Assembly (NCBI GenBank): GCA_004375895.1
Contig: SOJW01000020.1
Location: 1,170-65,169, forward strand
DNA: 64,000 bases
Reading direction: 5' to 3'
From: Candidatus Stahliibacteriota bacterium
GTDB lineage: Bacteria > Hydrothermota > Tepidihabitantia > B3-TA06
The notes below the pieces were generated by a model. That model was given only the letters and a program-made list of their open reading frames with translations, made no database searches and was not told the DNA's origin. Shown here one piece after another: positions 3,754 to 12,643 of this stretch. Every line of letters starts with the position of its first letter. Position 1 is the first letter of the stretch. Position numbers and translations under genes: made by a program.

Positions 3754-6606
3754 GTGAGATTGCGAGACGCAAAGCTTATCCTTGTTACCGACGTGGGCAG
3801 CACCACGACCAAGGCGCTTTTGATTGCGCGCGAGGGGGACAAGTTCCGCTTCGCCGGTGAGTTAGAGGTGCCCACCACCGTGGAGAAACCTGCAGAAGAC
3901 GTCAAGATTGGGGTGCTTGAGTCGGTGCGGGGGCTTGAGCAAAAGACCGGCACCACGCTCCTTGCCGACGGCAAGATAGCGATCCCATATTTGACCACCA
4001 GCTCGGCGGGCGGCGGGCTACAGATACTTGTGTTCGGGCTATCCGCACTTGAGACCGGCCGCGCGGCCCAGATGACCGCCTACGGCGCTGGCGGGGTGAT
4101 TCTGCGAACCTTCACCATAGACGATCAGATACCGGCGGTGGACAAGATGCGTCTCATCCGCGAGCTTCACCCTGATTTGATTCTGATGGCCGGCGGCGTT
4201 GACGGCGGTGCGATCTCGGGCGTGGTTCGTCTAGCCGAGCTTTTGTCCCTGGCCGATCCTGAGCCGAAGTTCAGGCTCTCGGAGCGCATCCCGCTTGTCT
4301 TCTGCGGCAATGTGGACGCGCGCGGGTTCGTTACACGTGTGCTTGAGGGGAACTTCGAGCTGTATATCACCGACAACATCCGCCCCAGCATGACCGAGCT
4401 TGCGACCGAGCCTGCCAAGCGCAAGGTGCACGAGCTTTTCATGGAGAACGTGATGGAGCGCGCGCCTGGCTACGCCGAGCTTAAGAACTGGGTGGCCGCG
4501 GACATCATGCCCACCCCTGCCGGGGTCGAGAATATCTTAAGGCTCTACGGCGAGAAGCTTAGCCAAAACATCCTTATGGTAGACATGGGCGGCGCGACCA
4601 CCGACATCTTCTCGAATATAGGCGGAGCGTATCATAGAACGGTGGCGGCCAACATCGGGATGAGCTACTCGGTATCGAACGTCCTTGCCGAGGTCGGCAT
4701 AGAGCGGATAATGCGGCACCTGCCTGGGGGTTTCACAGAGACCGAGGTGCGGGATTACATCTCGGGCAAGATGCTTAACCCGACCTACGTGCCCGGGCAG
4801 GCATGCGAGCGTGTGCTGGAGCAGGCCGCGGCCATTGAGGGGATCAACCTAGCCTGGGAGCAGCACAAGGATATGAACTTCAAGGTCTCGCGGATCGGAC
4901 GCCTGGACAGGAGACGATTACGCAAGGACGTCAATAAGTTCGAGGAGCTGTTTTATCTGAACGAAGAGCGCTACTTCCAGCTTTCGGATATCGATTTGAT
5001 CATCGGTGCTGGCGGCGTACTCTCGCATGCCGACCGAGTCGAAGAGGTCTTATGGATGCTTGCCGAGGGGTTCAGGCCATCGGGGATCACGAAGCTCGCG
5101 GTTGACCGCCACTTCAAGAGCCCTCACCTTGGGGTGCTGGCAAAGCTGGACGCTGAGGTTGCGCTTGATCTTTTTAAGGGCGAATGTCTGCAGGAGATCG
5201 GCTACGTTGTAGCGCCTGTGGGCAAGCTTCATCCCAAACGGCTGGCACTGACCATCAAGGATGCCCGAGGCTCAAAGGCCTATGCCCTTAAAGGCGGGGA
5301 GCTGCTGTATCTTCCCCAGGGCGGCGAGTTGGAGATACTGCTGGAGAAGGGGTTATGTATTCGCAACAACCTTGAGCGCTTTGAGTTAAAAACCTCCCTG
5401 CCCGTGCTTTTCGACTGCCGTGGCAGGGGCGAGAAGCTGTTGGGCGTGCCGCTTGCCTGCTCAGGGATAGAGGAGTTCTCACCAGCCGCAGGGACGTTCA
5501 AAACAGAAGTAAGGAAGGAAGCGGCTGAGATATCTGCAGGCACCTACAAAATCCAGCGCCGGCTCCCATACGAGGGCGAGATATTCGTCAAGCCCGGCCA
5601 GGAGGTGAAGCCTGACGATATCATAGGAGAGAACCGGTTCGGGCCGCCCAAGCTTTATATCATCGATATGCAGCGGGTGGTAGGATACGATAAGCCGTTA
5701 AGCGAGGAGGACTTCCTTGAAGGTCTCAAGGTAAAGATCGGTGATACGGTCAAACTCGGCCAGAACATCTTTCACTTCAAGCCCAAAGGCGCATTGCAGA
5801 TTCCATACAACTATCAATCCCCCATCAGGGGCATAGTGACGGGTATCGAGCAAGCCAGTAAGATGATAATAATGCGGGAGATCCAGGACTACGACGGCAG
5901 ACCCCACGTTGTAGACGTAGCCGGGAAGCTGGACATAAAGCCCGGACACATCAAGGCATACATGAAGTTCCAGGAGGGCGACTTTATCGAGATCGGTCGT
6001 ATAATTGCCCAAAACACATCCCAGGGCCGATTCCTGGTGGCAAAGGCCACCTCAACCGGGATGTTGAAGAAGATAGATACAAAGAAGGGCACGGTTACGA
6101 TCCAGTACCACATCACGCCGATACCGTTGCGCTCGTTCGTTTCGGGCAAGGTGAGCAGGGTGAAGGAGAACCTCGGCGTCGAGATAACCGGTCAGGGCAC
6201 AACGCTTTACGGCATCATAGGCTTCGGCGGCGAGGCTTCGGGCAAGATTCTTCTGAGCTCTCGCGAGCCGGACAGCTCTGCCAAAGCAAAGATTGTGGTT
6301 ACCTTTAATCCCGTTGACGAGGCTTTCTTGAGAAAGGCTGCTGAGGCAGGTGTTGCCGGGCTAATCGCGCCCTCGATTCACAACGCCGATTGGGTTCGCT
6401 TCTACGGGGAAGAGATCGGCGTGGCGCTGACAGGCGACGAGCAAATCCCGTTTACGTTGATACTTACCGAGGGGTTCGGTCGCTTTGCGATGAACGAGCG
6501 CTACCGCAGCTTCTTTGAGGCCGCGACGGGCAAGCTAGCCAGCCTTTCGGGCCGCACCCAGATACGCGCCGGCGTCACAAGACCCACGGTTATCGTAAGC
6601 GAATAG
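3754..6606 (+). CDS. GlmL/MutL-type ASKHA ATPase domain fused to a ~450-aa uncharacterised C-terminal region
   Basis: VTDVGSTTTKALL and MVDMGGATTDIFS phosphate-binding motifs, as in the glutamate-mutase accessory protein GlmL; C-terminal half has repeated KxGDxVxxGQxI barrel-like motifs. Confidence 0.6.
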   Translation: MRLRDAKLILVTDVGSTTTKALLIAREGDKFRFAGELEVPTTVEKPAEDVKIGVLESVRGLEQKTGTTLLADGKIAIPYLTTSSAGGGLQILVFGLSALETGRAAQMTAYGAGGVILRTFTIDDQIPAVDKMRLIRELHPDLILMAGGVDGGAISGVVRLAELLSLADPEPKFRLSERIPLVFCGNVDARGFVTRVLEGNFELYITDNIRPSMTELATEPAKRKVHELFMENVMERAPGYAELKNWVAADIMPTPAGVENILRLYGEKLSQNILMVDMGGATTDIFSNIGGAYHRTVAANIGMSYSVSNVLAEVGIERIMRHLPGGFTETEVRDYISGKMLNPTYVPGQACERVLEQAAAIEGINLAWEQHKDMNFKVSRIGRLDRRRLRKDVNKFEELFYLNEERYFQLSDIDLIIGAGGVLSHADRVEEVLWMLAEGFRPSGITKLAVDRHFKSPHLGVLAKLDAEVALDLFKGECLQEIGYVVAPVGKLHPKRLALTIKDARGSKAYALKGGELLYLPQGGELEILLEKGLCIRNNLERFELKTSLPVLFDCRGRGEKLLGVPLACSGIEEFSPAAGTFKTEVRKEAAEISAGTYKIQRRLPYEGEIFVKPGQEVKPDDIIGENRFGPPKLYIIDMQRVVGYDKPLSEEDFLEGLKVKIGDTVKLGQNIFHFKPKGALQIPYNYQSPIRGIVTGIEQASKMIIMREIQDYDGRPHVVDVAGKLDIKPGHIKAYMKFQEGDFIEIGRIIAQNTSQGRFLVAKATSTGMLKKIDTKKGTVTIQYHITPIPLRSFVSGKVSRVKENLGVEITGQGTTLYGIIGFGGEASGKILLSSREPDSSAKAKIVVTFNPVDEAFLRKAAEAGVAGLIAPSIHNADWVRFYGEEIGVALTGDEQIPFTLILTEGFGRFAMNERYRSFFEAATGKLASLSGRTQIRAGVTRPTVIVSE

Positions 6607-9933: not shown

Positions 9934-10686
9934 TCACTTCAAAGGCTTGGTGCCTATCAGGATGGGGACTTCCGGATAATTGGGATCGTCTAACTTGAGG
10001 TTTGCAAGCGTTACCTCAAAGCCCACCTTCTTTGCAAGATCAATCCAGGTTGCAAGATGGAATATCCCCAGAAGATGGCGGTCTGCTTCGATCGCAAGAT
10101 CGCCTCCGCGCCGGATCAGGAATATGAAGGTGGCTTCAAAGGTGGTATCTCGCGGATCAGGATCGTACTGATTCTCTATAAGGGTTATCTCTACCCCGCC
10201 CTTGGTGTGGGTTGAGACCGTGGTCTTGTTCTGTTTGAAGCGCTCCGGGGTCTCTTCTTCCATGTAGGTGAGGAACACCCCGCCTGGATTCAGATGAACG
10301 TAAGCGGTCTGGAACGCGGCGCGGAGATCCTCAACCGTGAGCATGTAGGAGATTGAATCGAAGATGGTCACCGCGTCAAAGGTCTTACCTAATCTGACCG
10401 AACGCATATCGCCGGATAGATATGTGACTTCGGGATTGAGTTTTTTTGCCCCCTCGAGCATCTGTGAGCTTACGTCAACGCCGGTGATTTCAAAGTAGCG
10501 CTTCAAGGTAAAGTCGTTGTGCCCGCCGCCGCAGCCCAGATCGAGTAAGGTTTTAACCTCTATCTTTGAGTGTTTGATGATCAGATCGCGGAACTTCTTT
10601 GACTCCTCTATATAGTCCTCAGGCGGGCTGATTATGGGCCAGGTCCATGCAAGGTCATTGTATAGCCTGTTCTTGTTCTTATCCAT
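9934..10686 (-). CDS. Class I SAM-dependent methyltransferase
   Basis: Motif I LLDLGCGGGHND; acidic loop ITGVDVS; typical ~250-aa size. Confidence 0.85.
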   Translation of the reverse strand: MDKNKNRLYNDLAWTWPIISPPEDYIEESKKFRDLIIKHSKIEVKTLLDLGCGGGHNDFTLKRYFEITGVDVSSQMLEGAKKLNPEVTYLSGDMRSVRLGKTFDAVTIFDSISYMLTVEDLRAAFQTAYVHLNPGGVFLTYMEEETPERFKQNKTTVSTHTKGGVEITLIENQYDPDPRDTTFEATFIFLIRRGGDLAIEADRHLLGIFHLATWIDLAKKVGFEVTLANLKLDDPNYPEVPILIGTKPLK

Positions 10687-10707
10687 TTCCCATCCAAGGC
10701 ACAGACC

Positions 10708-10826
10708 GTGGAGGATACCCTCTCAGGGTGTTCCTTCTCAGGGTCCCAATATGTCATCCCTGCGGGATGACATGGGCAGGCTGAGAGCCTACCCTCCATA
10801 AGTCCGTTCTCCATATTAAAAGAAGG
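10708..10826 (+). repeat. REP-like repeat copy 1
   Basis: gtggaggatacc[ctctcagggtgt insertion]ccttctcagggtcccaatATGTCATCCCTGCGGGATGACATgggcagg... Confidence 0.9.
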
Positions 10827-10858
10827 TTTTCTTCCGATATTCCGCATACTCCGGGTAA

Positions 10859-11353
10859 TCATTCCTCACCCTCAACCCAAGCCCTCCATAGCCAGGGATA
10901 ATCATCAACCTTTTTCACCAGGCCTTTTCTGACTGGATTGGCACAGATGTATTCGACCTTGCTTTCGGCATGTTCATAGGAACGCAGGATGCGGTCAAAG
11001 TATTCCTTCTGCCACACCTTACCTTCCCTGCCTAACGCTCTATTGATACTGCGGGCTGAAGCTCCTTTTATCCCCTGCATAATCTCTGCTAGGCCGTAGG
11101 TGACGCCTTGATCATCCTTCAATGGAGTAATAATCATATGGACATGGTCAGGCATAACGACAACACCGTGAAGAAAAAACTTTTTCCCGTGGTCGTGCAG
11201 GCAGTGTTTAATAACCAGATGCCGAACTGATTCGGGAAGTATCCAGCGTTTGAAAGTTGAAAAGGTTACAAAAAGGGATTTCCCTTCTCTCTGCAGATGG
11301 GGCAGCTTCCGGCAGTAGCTTTCTTTAGCAGGTTTTGCAGACGGTCGTTTCAT
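10859..11353 (-). CDS. REP-associated tyrosine transposase (IS200/IS605 Y1 HUH family, RAYT-like)
   Basis: HUH motif MPDHVHMII; catalytic-Tyr helix VEYICANPVRKGL; 164 aa; no TnpB partner. Confidence 0.8.
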   Translation of the reverse strand: MKRPSAKPAKESYCRKLPHLQREGKSLFVTFSTFKRWILPESVRHLVIKHCLHDHGKKFFLHGVVVMPDHVHMIITPLKDDQGVTYGLAEIMQGIKGASARSINRALGREGKVWQKEYFDRILRSYEHAESKVEYICANPVRKGLVKKVDDYPWLWRAWVEGEE

Positions 11354-11370
11354 TTTCTAATCCTTTCCCC

Positions 11371-11475
11371 GTGGAGGATACCTTCTCAGGGTCCCAATAT
11401 GTCATCCCTGCGGGATGACATGGGCAGGCTGAGAGCCTACCCTCCATAAGTCCGTTCTCCATATTAAAAGAAGGA
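11371..11475 (+). repeat. REP-like repeat copy 2
   Basis: Same orientation and sequence as copy 1, without the 12-13 nt insertion. Confidence 0.9.
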
Positions 11476-11799
11476 CCGAGTAGATGCCGGTGGTCACCAG
11501 CTTACCCCTCTCTTGGCAAGGTCCGAGTAGATGAAAAGACCAAGGCCTATTACGAACATCCCGGCCCCGATGTAGCGCGGCCAACCGATGAAGACCATCT
11601 TCACCGGATCGGAAAGACTCATGAACCCCCAAGCCGCCCACATGAGGAACATAACAATCATAATGAGAGCGAAAACCCCTCTGCTCTTCCCTTCCCCGGG
11701 CCGGCGGCGCATGAGAATGTAGTAAACGTTGCGGGTAACCGAGGTGGCAAGCCAGACTGCGAAAGCCGCAAAGAACCATGGGGTGATCTCTATGGACAT
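11476..11799 (-). pseudogene. ICMT/PEMT-family membrane methyltransferase, frameshifted and truncated at the REP repeat
   Basis: GGAGGAG SD + ATG 11799; TM N-terminus in one frame; family motif KLVTTGIYSV in the adjacent frame runs into the repeat where RHPxY should follow. Confidence 0.5.
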
Positions 11800-11974
11800 G
11801 ATTTCTCCTCCATCTAAAGGAATAGCAGGTTTATTAACGATTATACTGAGGATCATAAGAAATTCACCCTTCCCCTTAATCCCCTTACCCTATGGGGTGC
11901 AGTAAAATTGGCACCCCAAGGGGCACGCTGCCCACCAGGGGAGGGGAATTGCTGTTTCCAGCTCAAGCGTAAGG

Positions 11975-12020
11975 TTCTCCTCCCCCTTGACGGGGGAGGG
12001 TTAGGGTGGGGGTGAATAAA
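11975..12020 (+). repeat. GC-rich CCCTTGACGGGGGAGGG-TAGGG module, copy 1
   Basis: cctcccccttgacgggggagggttagggtgggggtgaa; second copy at 12395..12445. Confidence 0.75.
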
Positions 12021-12124
12021 AACGCCCTGTCCGGTTTTACTTACCCGGTAAACCATACCTGAAAAGAGTTCATGTTAATTCAGTCTACTGGGATGAGGTG
12101 GGGTGTCAACCAATTCCTTCCCTA

Positions 12125-12255
12125 GTCATCGCGAGGCTGTCGCAGACAGCCGTGGCGATCTCATAGCACTAGCTTTGAACGGCCACTACCTGCTATGAGA
12201 TTGCTCCCTGCGTTCGCCCTCCGGTGCTTCGTCTCCTTCGGAGACTCGCAATGAC
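12125..12255. repeat. ~130-bp palindromic element
   Basis: Outer GTCATCGCGAG / CTCGCAATGAC and inner GCGATCTCATAGCA / TGCTATGAGATTGC inverted repeats; each arm has its own small hairpin. Confidence 0.75.
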
Positions 12256-12394
12256 AATAAAAAGAAATAAAAACGGGCCGACTTGAAAGTCGGCCCCTAC
12301 GAGGTTATTATTCAATGCTTTCGGGTTGGAACAGGCTTTTGAACAGACACGATGTATTGACCATGGACAGAGATAATCGAATACTACCGCCTCA

Positions 12395-12445
12395 TCCTTA
12401 ATATACCCCTCCCTTGACGGGAGGGGGTAGGGGGAGGGTGAATTA
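12395..12445 (+). repeat. GC-rich CCCTTGACGGGAGGGGGTAGGG module, copy 2
   Basis: cccctcccttgacgggagggggtagggggagggtgaa. Confidence 0.75.
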
Positions 12446-12585
12446 ACAACAGCGGGCCGACCTAACGCTTGTGCCCCCGTCGGGTACGAAGCGGACGCCA
12501 TAGGCGTCAACGTCGGCCCCTACATTTTTCGCTCACCCCACACAGCTGCTACGCATCGTCGCGGGGACCCCGTAAGGGTGTCCAG

Positions 12586-12630
12586 CTTTTGACCAGCTTT
12601 TGACCAGTATTTGGGGAGTTTTTGTCACCC
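12586..12630 (+). repeat. Two 11-bp CTTTTGACCAG units plus an inverted, degenerate boundary box
   Basis: cttttgaccag x2, then tatttggggagtttttgtcaccc, resembling the reverse complement of TTGCCAAAAATACCCCGAAA. Confidence 0.6.
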
Positions 12631-12643
12631 TTTTTCTGAGACT

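Follow-up and report, generated by a model that had tools for sequence, protein, structure and literature searches.

A REPtron-like RAYT locus of an uncultured WOR-3 bacterium, flanked by a REP cluster that was probably duplicated locally together with host-gene bases

The 64,000-nt stretch of DNA analysed here (the window) contains what is very probably a REPtron-like RAYT locus of a WOR-3 bacterium, the flanks of which represent a REP cluster that was duplicated, bases of a host gene included, by a local event. The perfect identity of the flanking repeats points to a recent event, as a preliminary description of the locus had already proposed. What seems to be new at this locus is the presence of 3' bases of a host gene in both repeats, together with the splitting of a PEMT/ICMT-like gene by the RAYT gene. 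Read from the sequence, the repeat starts with 11 nt of the 3' end of this host gene, and one repeat and the RAYT gene lie inside its remains. These observations go beyond the preliminary description and make a local event, duplication or recombination, more likely than that a mobile hairpin unit was inserted twice independently.

Results

The RAYT gene

The RAYT gene (10859-11353, minus strand) is an intact ORF for a protein of 164 aa with an HUH motif (HVHMII, H70-V71-H72) and a tyrosine motif (YICANPVR, Tyr135 with Asn139). With 105.1 bits the protein is above the cut-off (80) of the curated NCBIfam model NF047646, REP_Tyr_transpos, and with 24.6 bits it stays below that of the IS200 model NF033573 (55). 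Its Pfam match is Y1_Tnp. The best match in the PDB is 4ER8, the E. coli TnpA-REP (E = 1.6e-7), and H70-V71-H72 and Y135-I-C-A-N139-P align with EHMHCIW and YIYINP of that structure, so that both the HUH residues and the YxxxNP tyrosine have counterparts. Family membership and the catalytic residues have direct support in these matches, and the gene is a RAYT of the TnpA-REP type and not an IS200 TnpA; by analogy with the E. coli protein it would be enzymatically active.

Comparison with orthologues gave pN values of 0.10-0.19 and saturated pS values of 0.70-0.87. The resulting pN/pS of 0.13-0.23 indicates that the gene is probably under purifying selection. The closest RAYT paralogue in the genome is 69 % identical and there is no near-identical gene copy. 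No TnpB-like ORF was found among the neighbouring ORFs examined, and the neighbouring 418-aa and 269-aa ORFs had no Pfam match and no transposase domains. The preliminary description, in which the gene was named a RAYT without a TnpB partner in a REPtron-like setting, is thus upheld on these points. Upstream of the gene lies a 15-nt leader (11354-11368, minus strand, GGAAAGGATTAGAAA) with a Shine-Dalgarno-like AAAGGA, and the part GAAAGGATT is also found upstream of an 83 % identical orthologue.

The flanking repeats

A repeat search of the window gave a direct repeat of 94 nt, 100 % identical, at 10733-10826 and 11381-11474, with a spacing of 648 nt. When the shared 5' part CCGTGGAGGATAC is included, the units are 121 nt for R1 (10706-10826) and 106 nt for R2 (11369-11474), and they differ by a 15-nt indel, the extra 15 nt of R1 being located at about 10720-10734. 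Each unit contains the palindrome ATGTCATCCCtgcGGGATGACAT, with a 10-bp stem and a 3-nt loop (10751-10773 and 11399-11421). The preliminary description had reported the identical same-orientation 94-nt repeats, the palindromes, an extra duplication in the first copy and a third copy of the mini-hairpin ACCCTCTCAGGGT inside a 65-aa ORF. All of these were recovered, the last at 2114-2126 within the ORF 1990-2187, and only the size of the extra duplication, given as 12-13 nt, has to be corrected to 15 nt.

On the plus strand the repeat (R) contains a REP(+) arm, GTGGAG-GATACCCT-CTC-AGGGTGTT (10708-10732 in R1; foot GTGG/GGAG, stem GATACCCT/AGGGTGTT, loop CTC), followed by the palindrome and a REP(-) arm (10774-10799 in R1, 11422-11447 in R2). 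The reverse complement of the latter is ATGGAGGGTAGGCTCTCAGCCTGCCC in R1, and it reads as ATGGAG-GGTAGGCT-CTC-AGCCTGCC. A half REP(-) (10801-10814 and 11449-11462) and 11 nt derived from the host gene (10816-10826 and 11464-11474) complete the unit. The REP arms are degenerate, the REP(+) arm pairing at 5-6 of the 8 stem positions. Each flank can thus be described as a putative degenerate REPIN consisting of a REP(+), a 23-nt palindromic spacer, a REP(-) and a half REP. The gene-proximal REPs on the two sides of the RAYT gene are mutually inverted, as in classical REPtrons.

An assembly artefact was considered and rejected. The R-gene-R arrangement is identical, both unique flanks included, in the independent assembly GCA_030588455.1, and a Logan contig (L110), from SRR7716471, has the junction of R1 with the following methyltransferase gene as in the window; the junctions are thus common to two further assemblies, and R1 and R2 differ by the indel.

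No further copy of the whole 94/106-nt unit was found in the genome or in 40 relatives, and a search with the 23-nt palindrome matched a single metagenome contig, from a sister strain. Because the whole unit is without another copy in the genome, R itself does not seem to be a proliferating REPIN. The preliminary description had named absence of the unit elsewhere as a finding that would count against it. This objection holds by half, since the unit is indeed confined to this locus, yet the REP modules in it are members of a family dispersed over the genome. In Rfam searches of the window only a tRNA reached the gathering score, and the region 10600-11600 gave only chance-level matches; R is therefore not a known structured RNA. 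No consensus sigma-70-like promoter or terminator was found inside R, and the total counts of the region were no higher than in shuffled sequences.

The split PEMT/ICMT-like gene

A full-length homologue of the host gene is present in two relatives, G005 and G003, and codes for 176 aa with PF04191/PF04140 over residues 101-163. In the window, the 5' part of this gene (11475-11856, minus strand) is now a pseudogene that encodes residues 1 to about 113; a 13-nt deletion shifts its frame, and the reading ends with ...KLVTTGIYS, cut exactly at the edge of R2. The codons of about residues 114-163, the catalytic part, are missing. A tblastn search with the G005 homologue recovered the C-terminal 13 residues at 10816-10857 on the minus strand, beginning one base past the RAYT stop codon (YPEYAEYRKKTFF and stop in the window, YPEYAEYRKRTWF and stop in the homologue), with about 73 % nucleotide identity to the DNA of the homologues, as counted by eye. 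The repeat starts, in R1 as in R2, with the 11 nt CCTTCTTTTAA that end the PEMT/ICMT-like ORF.

The split of the gene and the host bases in the repeats are thus read directly from the DNA. Since the tail of the host ORF lies at R1 and its 11 nt occur in both repeats, R1 appears to be at its native position, just past the stop codon of the host gene, and R2 appears to be a copy of the chromosomal segment of R1, host coding bases included. About 50 codons of the dead host gene are now replaced by R2, the leader of 15 nt and the RAYT ORF. The host bases in the repeats therefore argue for local duplication or recombination and against a pair of element ends or two REPIN insertions. No ICMT remnants were found beside the orthologous RAYT genes at loci L013-L018, so the association with ICMT seems to be specific to this lineage. 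In G005, no overlap was found between the end of the contig with the ICMT gene and the contig with the RAYT gene.

Rearrangements around the locus

The same-genus relative G001 is syntenic with the window on both sides of the locus (93-94 % nucleotide identity), with 10666-12268 of the window replaced by 1330 nt containing an SDR-like ORF; a precise empty site was not found in this genome. Its methyltransferase is 98 % identical to that of the window and is not preceded by R. Upstream of the gene, a partial duplicate of the methyltransferase 5' end was observed (3935-3990 compared to 4060-4110 of L103, contig C22 of G001), with 20 identical nt, tggacctggccaattatcag; it may be another sign of rearrangement at this boundary.

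The metagenome contig JABUBL010013579.1 (L108), from a sister strain, extends from R2 through the leader into the RAYT gene, of which it has the first 146 nt. There the 5' end of the RAYT gene is joined in inverted orientation to window position 11831 with a 7-nt microhomology, and the gene is disrupted. The junction looks like an inversion or an inverted duplication which destroyed the RAYT gene. Positions 1-600 of this contig correspond to 11208-11421 plus 11831-12259 of the window at 95-98 % nucleotide identity, and the contig starts with a snap-back through the palindrome of R.

Next to the locus, 11860-12643 of the window is a gene-free tract of other repeat modules (e.g. 11862-11950, 11975-12016 and 12395-12450). 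Each of these modules has many copies in G001, and they belong to families other than those of the present REPs. Around the locus the chromosome is variable, with an abundance of further repeat families. In G005, a 2558-nt contig (L005/L016) has at 991-1370 a RAYT gene followed by a tandem partial second copy, which covers the first 35 codons of the gene at 71 % identity, with REP doublets between the copies. Local duplications around RAYT genes seem to recur in this lineage.

The REP families of the genome

The genome (2.2 Mb in 75 contigs) was scanned for hairpins of the form stem-CT-loop-AG-stem, and 72 were found, compared to 4-9 in shuffled genomes. A second scan with four loop types gave 68 hairpins; in 62 of them a G[T/G][A/G]G foot (GTGG 27, GTAG 25 and GGAG 10) immediately precedes the 8-bp stem on its 5' side. 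Thirty of the footed hairpins form 15 tail-to-tail inverted doublets (REPINs) with the members 21-39 nt apart. The loop of the family is CTC(C). Compensatory changes were seen at 5 of the 8 stem pairs, in a set which was chosen for pairing, so that the percentage paired is given by construction. At the sequence level this hairpin family agrees with REPs and REPINs tagged by GT[AG]G as they are defined in the literature (PMC3733652, PMC6006769, PMC3116915). The foot variant GGAG is absent from the foot list of one of these studies (PMC3733652).

The GGAG-foot subtype has about 8 copies in this genome compared to 36 in the sister-genus genome G007. Shorter GGAG-foot doublets lie at 2107-2155 of the window and at C71:1403-1451. 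The former (49 nt, plus strand, GGAGGACACCCTCTCAGGGTGTCC and GGGCAGTCTGGAGAGGCTGCCCTCC) breaks the 65-aa ORF, a putative C-terminal remnant of a restriction-modification-type protein (...IDKLVYKLYDLTEDEIRIVEG), and a paralogous remnant with a similar REP was observed at C51:62500-62613.

The genome also has a second, unrelated REP family, GTAG-GGGCCGACC-N4-GGTCGGCCC, with 56 copies. Members of this family flank, in inverted orientation, two distant RAYT-like genes at C32:5780-6370 and C45:79680-80135, which have 38 % and 51 % local identity, respectively, to the RAYT of the window; the C45 copy seems to be truncated.

RAYT genes and REPs in related genomes

The distribution of the REP pattern GT[AG]G-N6-CTCTCCAG was counted in this genome and in 40 relatives. 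There are 38 copies in this genome (control 1), and 27, 13, 6, 35 and 18 in five genomes of the same genus. In the sister genus, G007 has 10 copies and G010 has 3, the latter not above the background of the other 33 relatives (3 or fewer). Close homologues of the RAYT (69-83 % identity) were found in G000, G002-G005, G007 and G010 and not in G001. Direct support for the co-distribution of enzyme and REP family comes from these counts: the RAYT clade is present in seven of these eight genomes, and the 33 other relatives have neither. In the exception, G001, the CTCC-loop REP pattern occurs 27 times and no RAYT of the clade was detected, the best match being 38 % identical. It could be that the gene was lost and the REPs persisted, or that there is a binning gap (an unbinned short contig).

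At every homologous locus examined, REP arrays of the same design flank the gene. In six related genomes, REP arrays are present on the flanks of every orthologue, in many cases as direct doublets. The 69 % identical paralogue, on contig C59, bears its own REP variant, GTGTAG-CGCGGGCT-CTC-AGCCCGCG, on both sides in direct orientation and in addition an inverted partner. Direct flank repeats of 40-156 nt are common at the 27 homologous loci compared, which come from several phyla, and the loci of Thermodesulfobacteriota have perfect inverted REPs of 31-32 nt. As direct flank repeats are so common among the 27 loci, direct flanks are not unusual in this RAYT clade. The preliminary description had regarded direct flanks as unusual, which is not borne out, also since each flank here is itself an inverted REP doublet.

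The closest orthologue is that of G010 (83 % identity, sister at 99/96 support), and its flanks have the GGAG foot. R also has the GGAG foot, and to judge from flank composition the RAYT of the window probably serves the GGAG-foot subtype; some RAYTs of the same group in G007 are flanked by GTAG-foot REPs.

RAYTs with 63-73 % identity and very similar REPs are present in Thermodesulfobacteriota, Planctomycetota and Chloroflexota, with the shared REP design TGT[A/G]G and [A/C/G]ACAGCC..., and RAYT homologues with 50-60 % identity were found in Acidobacteriota. The near-identical REP design accompanying these RAYTs across phyla suggests that enzyme and REP may have travelled together between phyla. 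Such a spread would fit the patchy distribution of RAYTs by transfer and loss described earlier (PMC6006769). At the loci L017, L020-L023 and L025-L027, of Thermodesulfobacteriota and Planctomycetota, the RAYTs were observed to be 55-70 % identical to that of the window, and their REPs have the form TGT[A/G]G, [G/C/A]ACAGCCG and a CCCT/CCCC loop.

Discussion

REPtrons are known from the yafM locus of E. coli K-12, from Pseudomonas fluorescens SBW25 and from Stenotrophomonas (PMC6006769, PMC3733652, PMC3116915, PMC3479197), and their features include the GT[AG]G foot, one RAYT for each REP family and a patchy distribution (PMC6006769, PMC3733652). The present locus resembles them in that its HUH/Y1 protein passes the curated RAYT model, the flanking REPs have a foot of the G-T/G-A/G-G type, an 8-bp stem and a short loop, and REPs of the same type are dispersed in the genome, for the most part as inverted doublets. 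A REP variant of its own goes with each RAYT paralogue, TnpB and identical gene copies are lacking and the phylogenetic distribution is patchy. It differs from them in its host, an uncultured WOR-3 bacterium (Caldifarciminota) with a 2.2-Mb genome, in the low number of REPs (about 60-70) and in the foot of the REPs of this paralogue, which is GGAG or GTGG and not GTAG. Unlike in the known REPtrons, both flanks consist of a composite doublet with a palindromic spacer of 23 nt found nowhere else, in two direct copies that are perfect over 94 nt, and the gene and one flank are inside a disrupted host gene and not at a stable extragenic site.

With REPINs (Bertels and Rainey 2011) R shares the arrangement of two inverted REPs around a spacer, with a length of about 100 nt, and 15 ordinary doublets of its REP family occur elsewhere in the genome. 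However, R exists only as two local copies, a further half REP and 11 nt from a host ORF are part of it, and it seems to be a duplicated chromosomal segment rather than a replicating REPIN lineage. The TnpA proteins of the IS200/IS605 family (IS608, ISDra2) have the same catalytic fold and chemistry, with HUH and one tyrosine, and share with the locus the one-strand hairpins on both sides and the lack of target duplication. In contrast to them, the protein of the window fails the IS200 model, has a YxxxN motif and a C-terminal extension of the TnpA-REP type, and the locus is without distinct left and right ends, multiple identical copies and TnpB. All defining features of RAYTs and REPtrons that can be tested by sequence are present, and those of an IS200/IS605 element are not.

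That the locus is an autonomous insertion sequence of the IS200/IS605 type, with same-orientation hairpin units as its ends (cf. IS608) and inserted into the PEMT/ICMT gene, is accordingly very improbable. The hairpins of both flanks do have the same orientation, the unit is within a disrupted host gene and no target duplication was seen, as expected for that family. But besides the model scores, which fall below the IS200 cut-off (24.6 against 55 bits) and above that for RAYTs, the tyrosine motif is YxxxN and not YxxxQ (PMC6006769), a second identical copy is absent and the paralogues are at most 69 % identical. Both supposed ends are the same 94 nt, with 11 nt of host coding sequence in each. 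Since the 3' tail of the host gene separates R1 from the RAYT gene, R1 is host context and not an element end, and a simple insertion leaves the loss of about 50 host codons unexplained. Of the readings weighed here, the one we consider the hardest to credit is that the repeat serves regulation, as a promoter, leader or terminator module that was duplicated upstream of two genes and the copies of which are kept identical by selection. It would agree with the positions of R2, 15 nt before the RAYT gene, and R1, 19 nt before the methyltransferase gene, each with a start codon on the same strand, and it is compatible with the explanation preferred here rather than exclusive of it. R, however, has neither a sigma-70-like promoter nor a terminator inside it, with region counts not above shuffles, the 98 % identical methyltransferase of G001 does without R, and R is made of REP modules that are present at many unrelated places.

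Recombination, by the host or mediated by the RAYT, may also have moved the RAYT gene as a cassette. A 648-bp circle (R, leader, RAYT gene and ICMT tail) that integrated at R, or that can be excised between the repeats, would account for the exact 648-nt periodicity and the 94 nt of perfect homology. The locus is prone to rearrangement, as seen in the sister strain, where the RAYT 5' end is joined inverted to 11831, and the 5' end of the G005 RAYT gene is partly duplicated in tandem. On the other hand, neither the deleted form (ICMT'-R-methyltransferase) nor the circle junction was found on any contig among the assemblies searched, and integration at R alone gives the wrong order, with the host tail between RAYT and R1, so that an extra deletion is needed. 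We regard this circle as distinctly unlikely. The broader proposal that the RAYT gene and one REP cluster were recently moved into the host gene, either by REP-guided cleavage and strand transfer or as the 648-bp circle, is doubtful but deserves somewhat more weight. If it were true, REPtrons in this clade would remain able to move or rearrange as units, contrary to the current view that a RAYT gene does not mobilise itself, and the reaction would have left its footprint in the perfect repeats, in which host bases are included up to a CT-containing site.

We consider it probable that the R-RAYT-R arrangement arose when the REP cluster recently underwent local duplication or recombination, and not by transposition of an IS-like unit with ends of its own. 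By analogy with the E. coli TnpA-REP, the monomeric HUH/Y1 enzyme would bind single-stranded REP hairpins via the 5' foot G[T/G][A/G]G and the stem-loop, cut close to the hairpin, at a short dinucleotide site, and be able to rejoin the strands. Through such cleavage and rejoining it could maintain the REPs across the genome and their inverted doublets (REPINs). Candidate routes to the duplication are REP-REP recombination, template switching at hairpins, and RAYT cleavage at a distant site with strand transfer. The E. coli enzyme carries out GTAG-guided cleavage at CT, possibly well away from the hairpin, as well as strand transfer (PMC3479197), and because of this a RAYT-mediated origin of the copy is conceivable; template switching and REP-REP recombination seem equally possible. 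From a putative ancestral ICMT-R-methyltransferase order, at least two events, in whichever sequence, would be needed to reach the present arrangement.

The locus opens no new class of element, and its flanks are not a new kind of terminal repeat. It adds a well-resolved REP/RAYT system in the small genome of a member of the uncultured WOR-3 phylum, with two RAYT clades, at least two REP families and foot subtypes within one family. The locus is also a clear case of a REP cluster as a breakpoint, with a split host gene, a perfect local duplication and, in a sister strain, an inversion that destroys the RAYT gene. For annotation, this explains contig breaks and pseudogenes in these MAGs.
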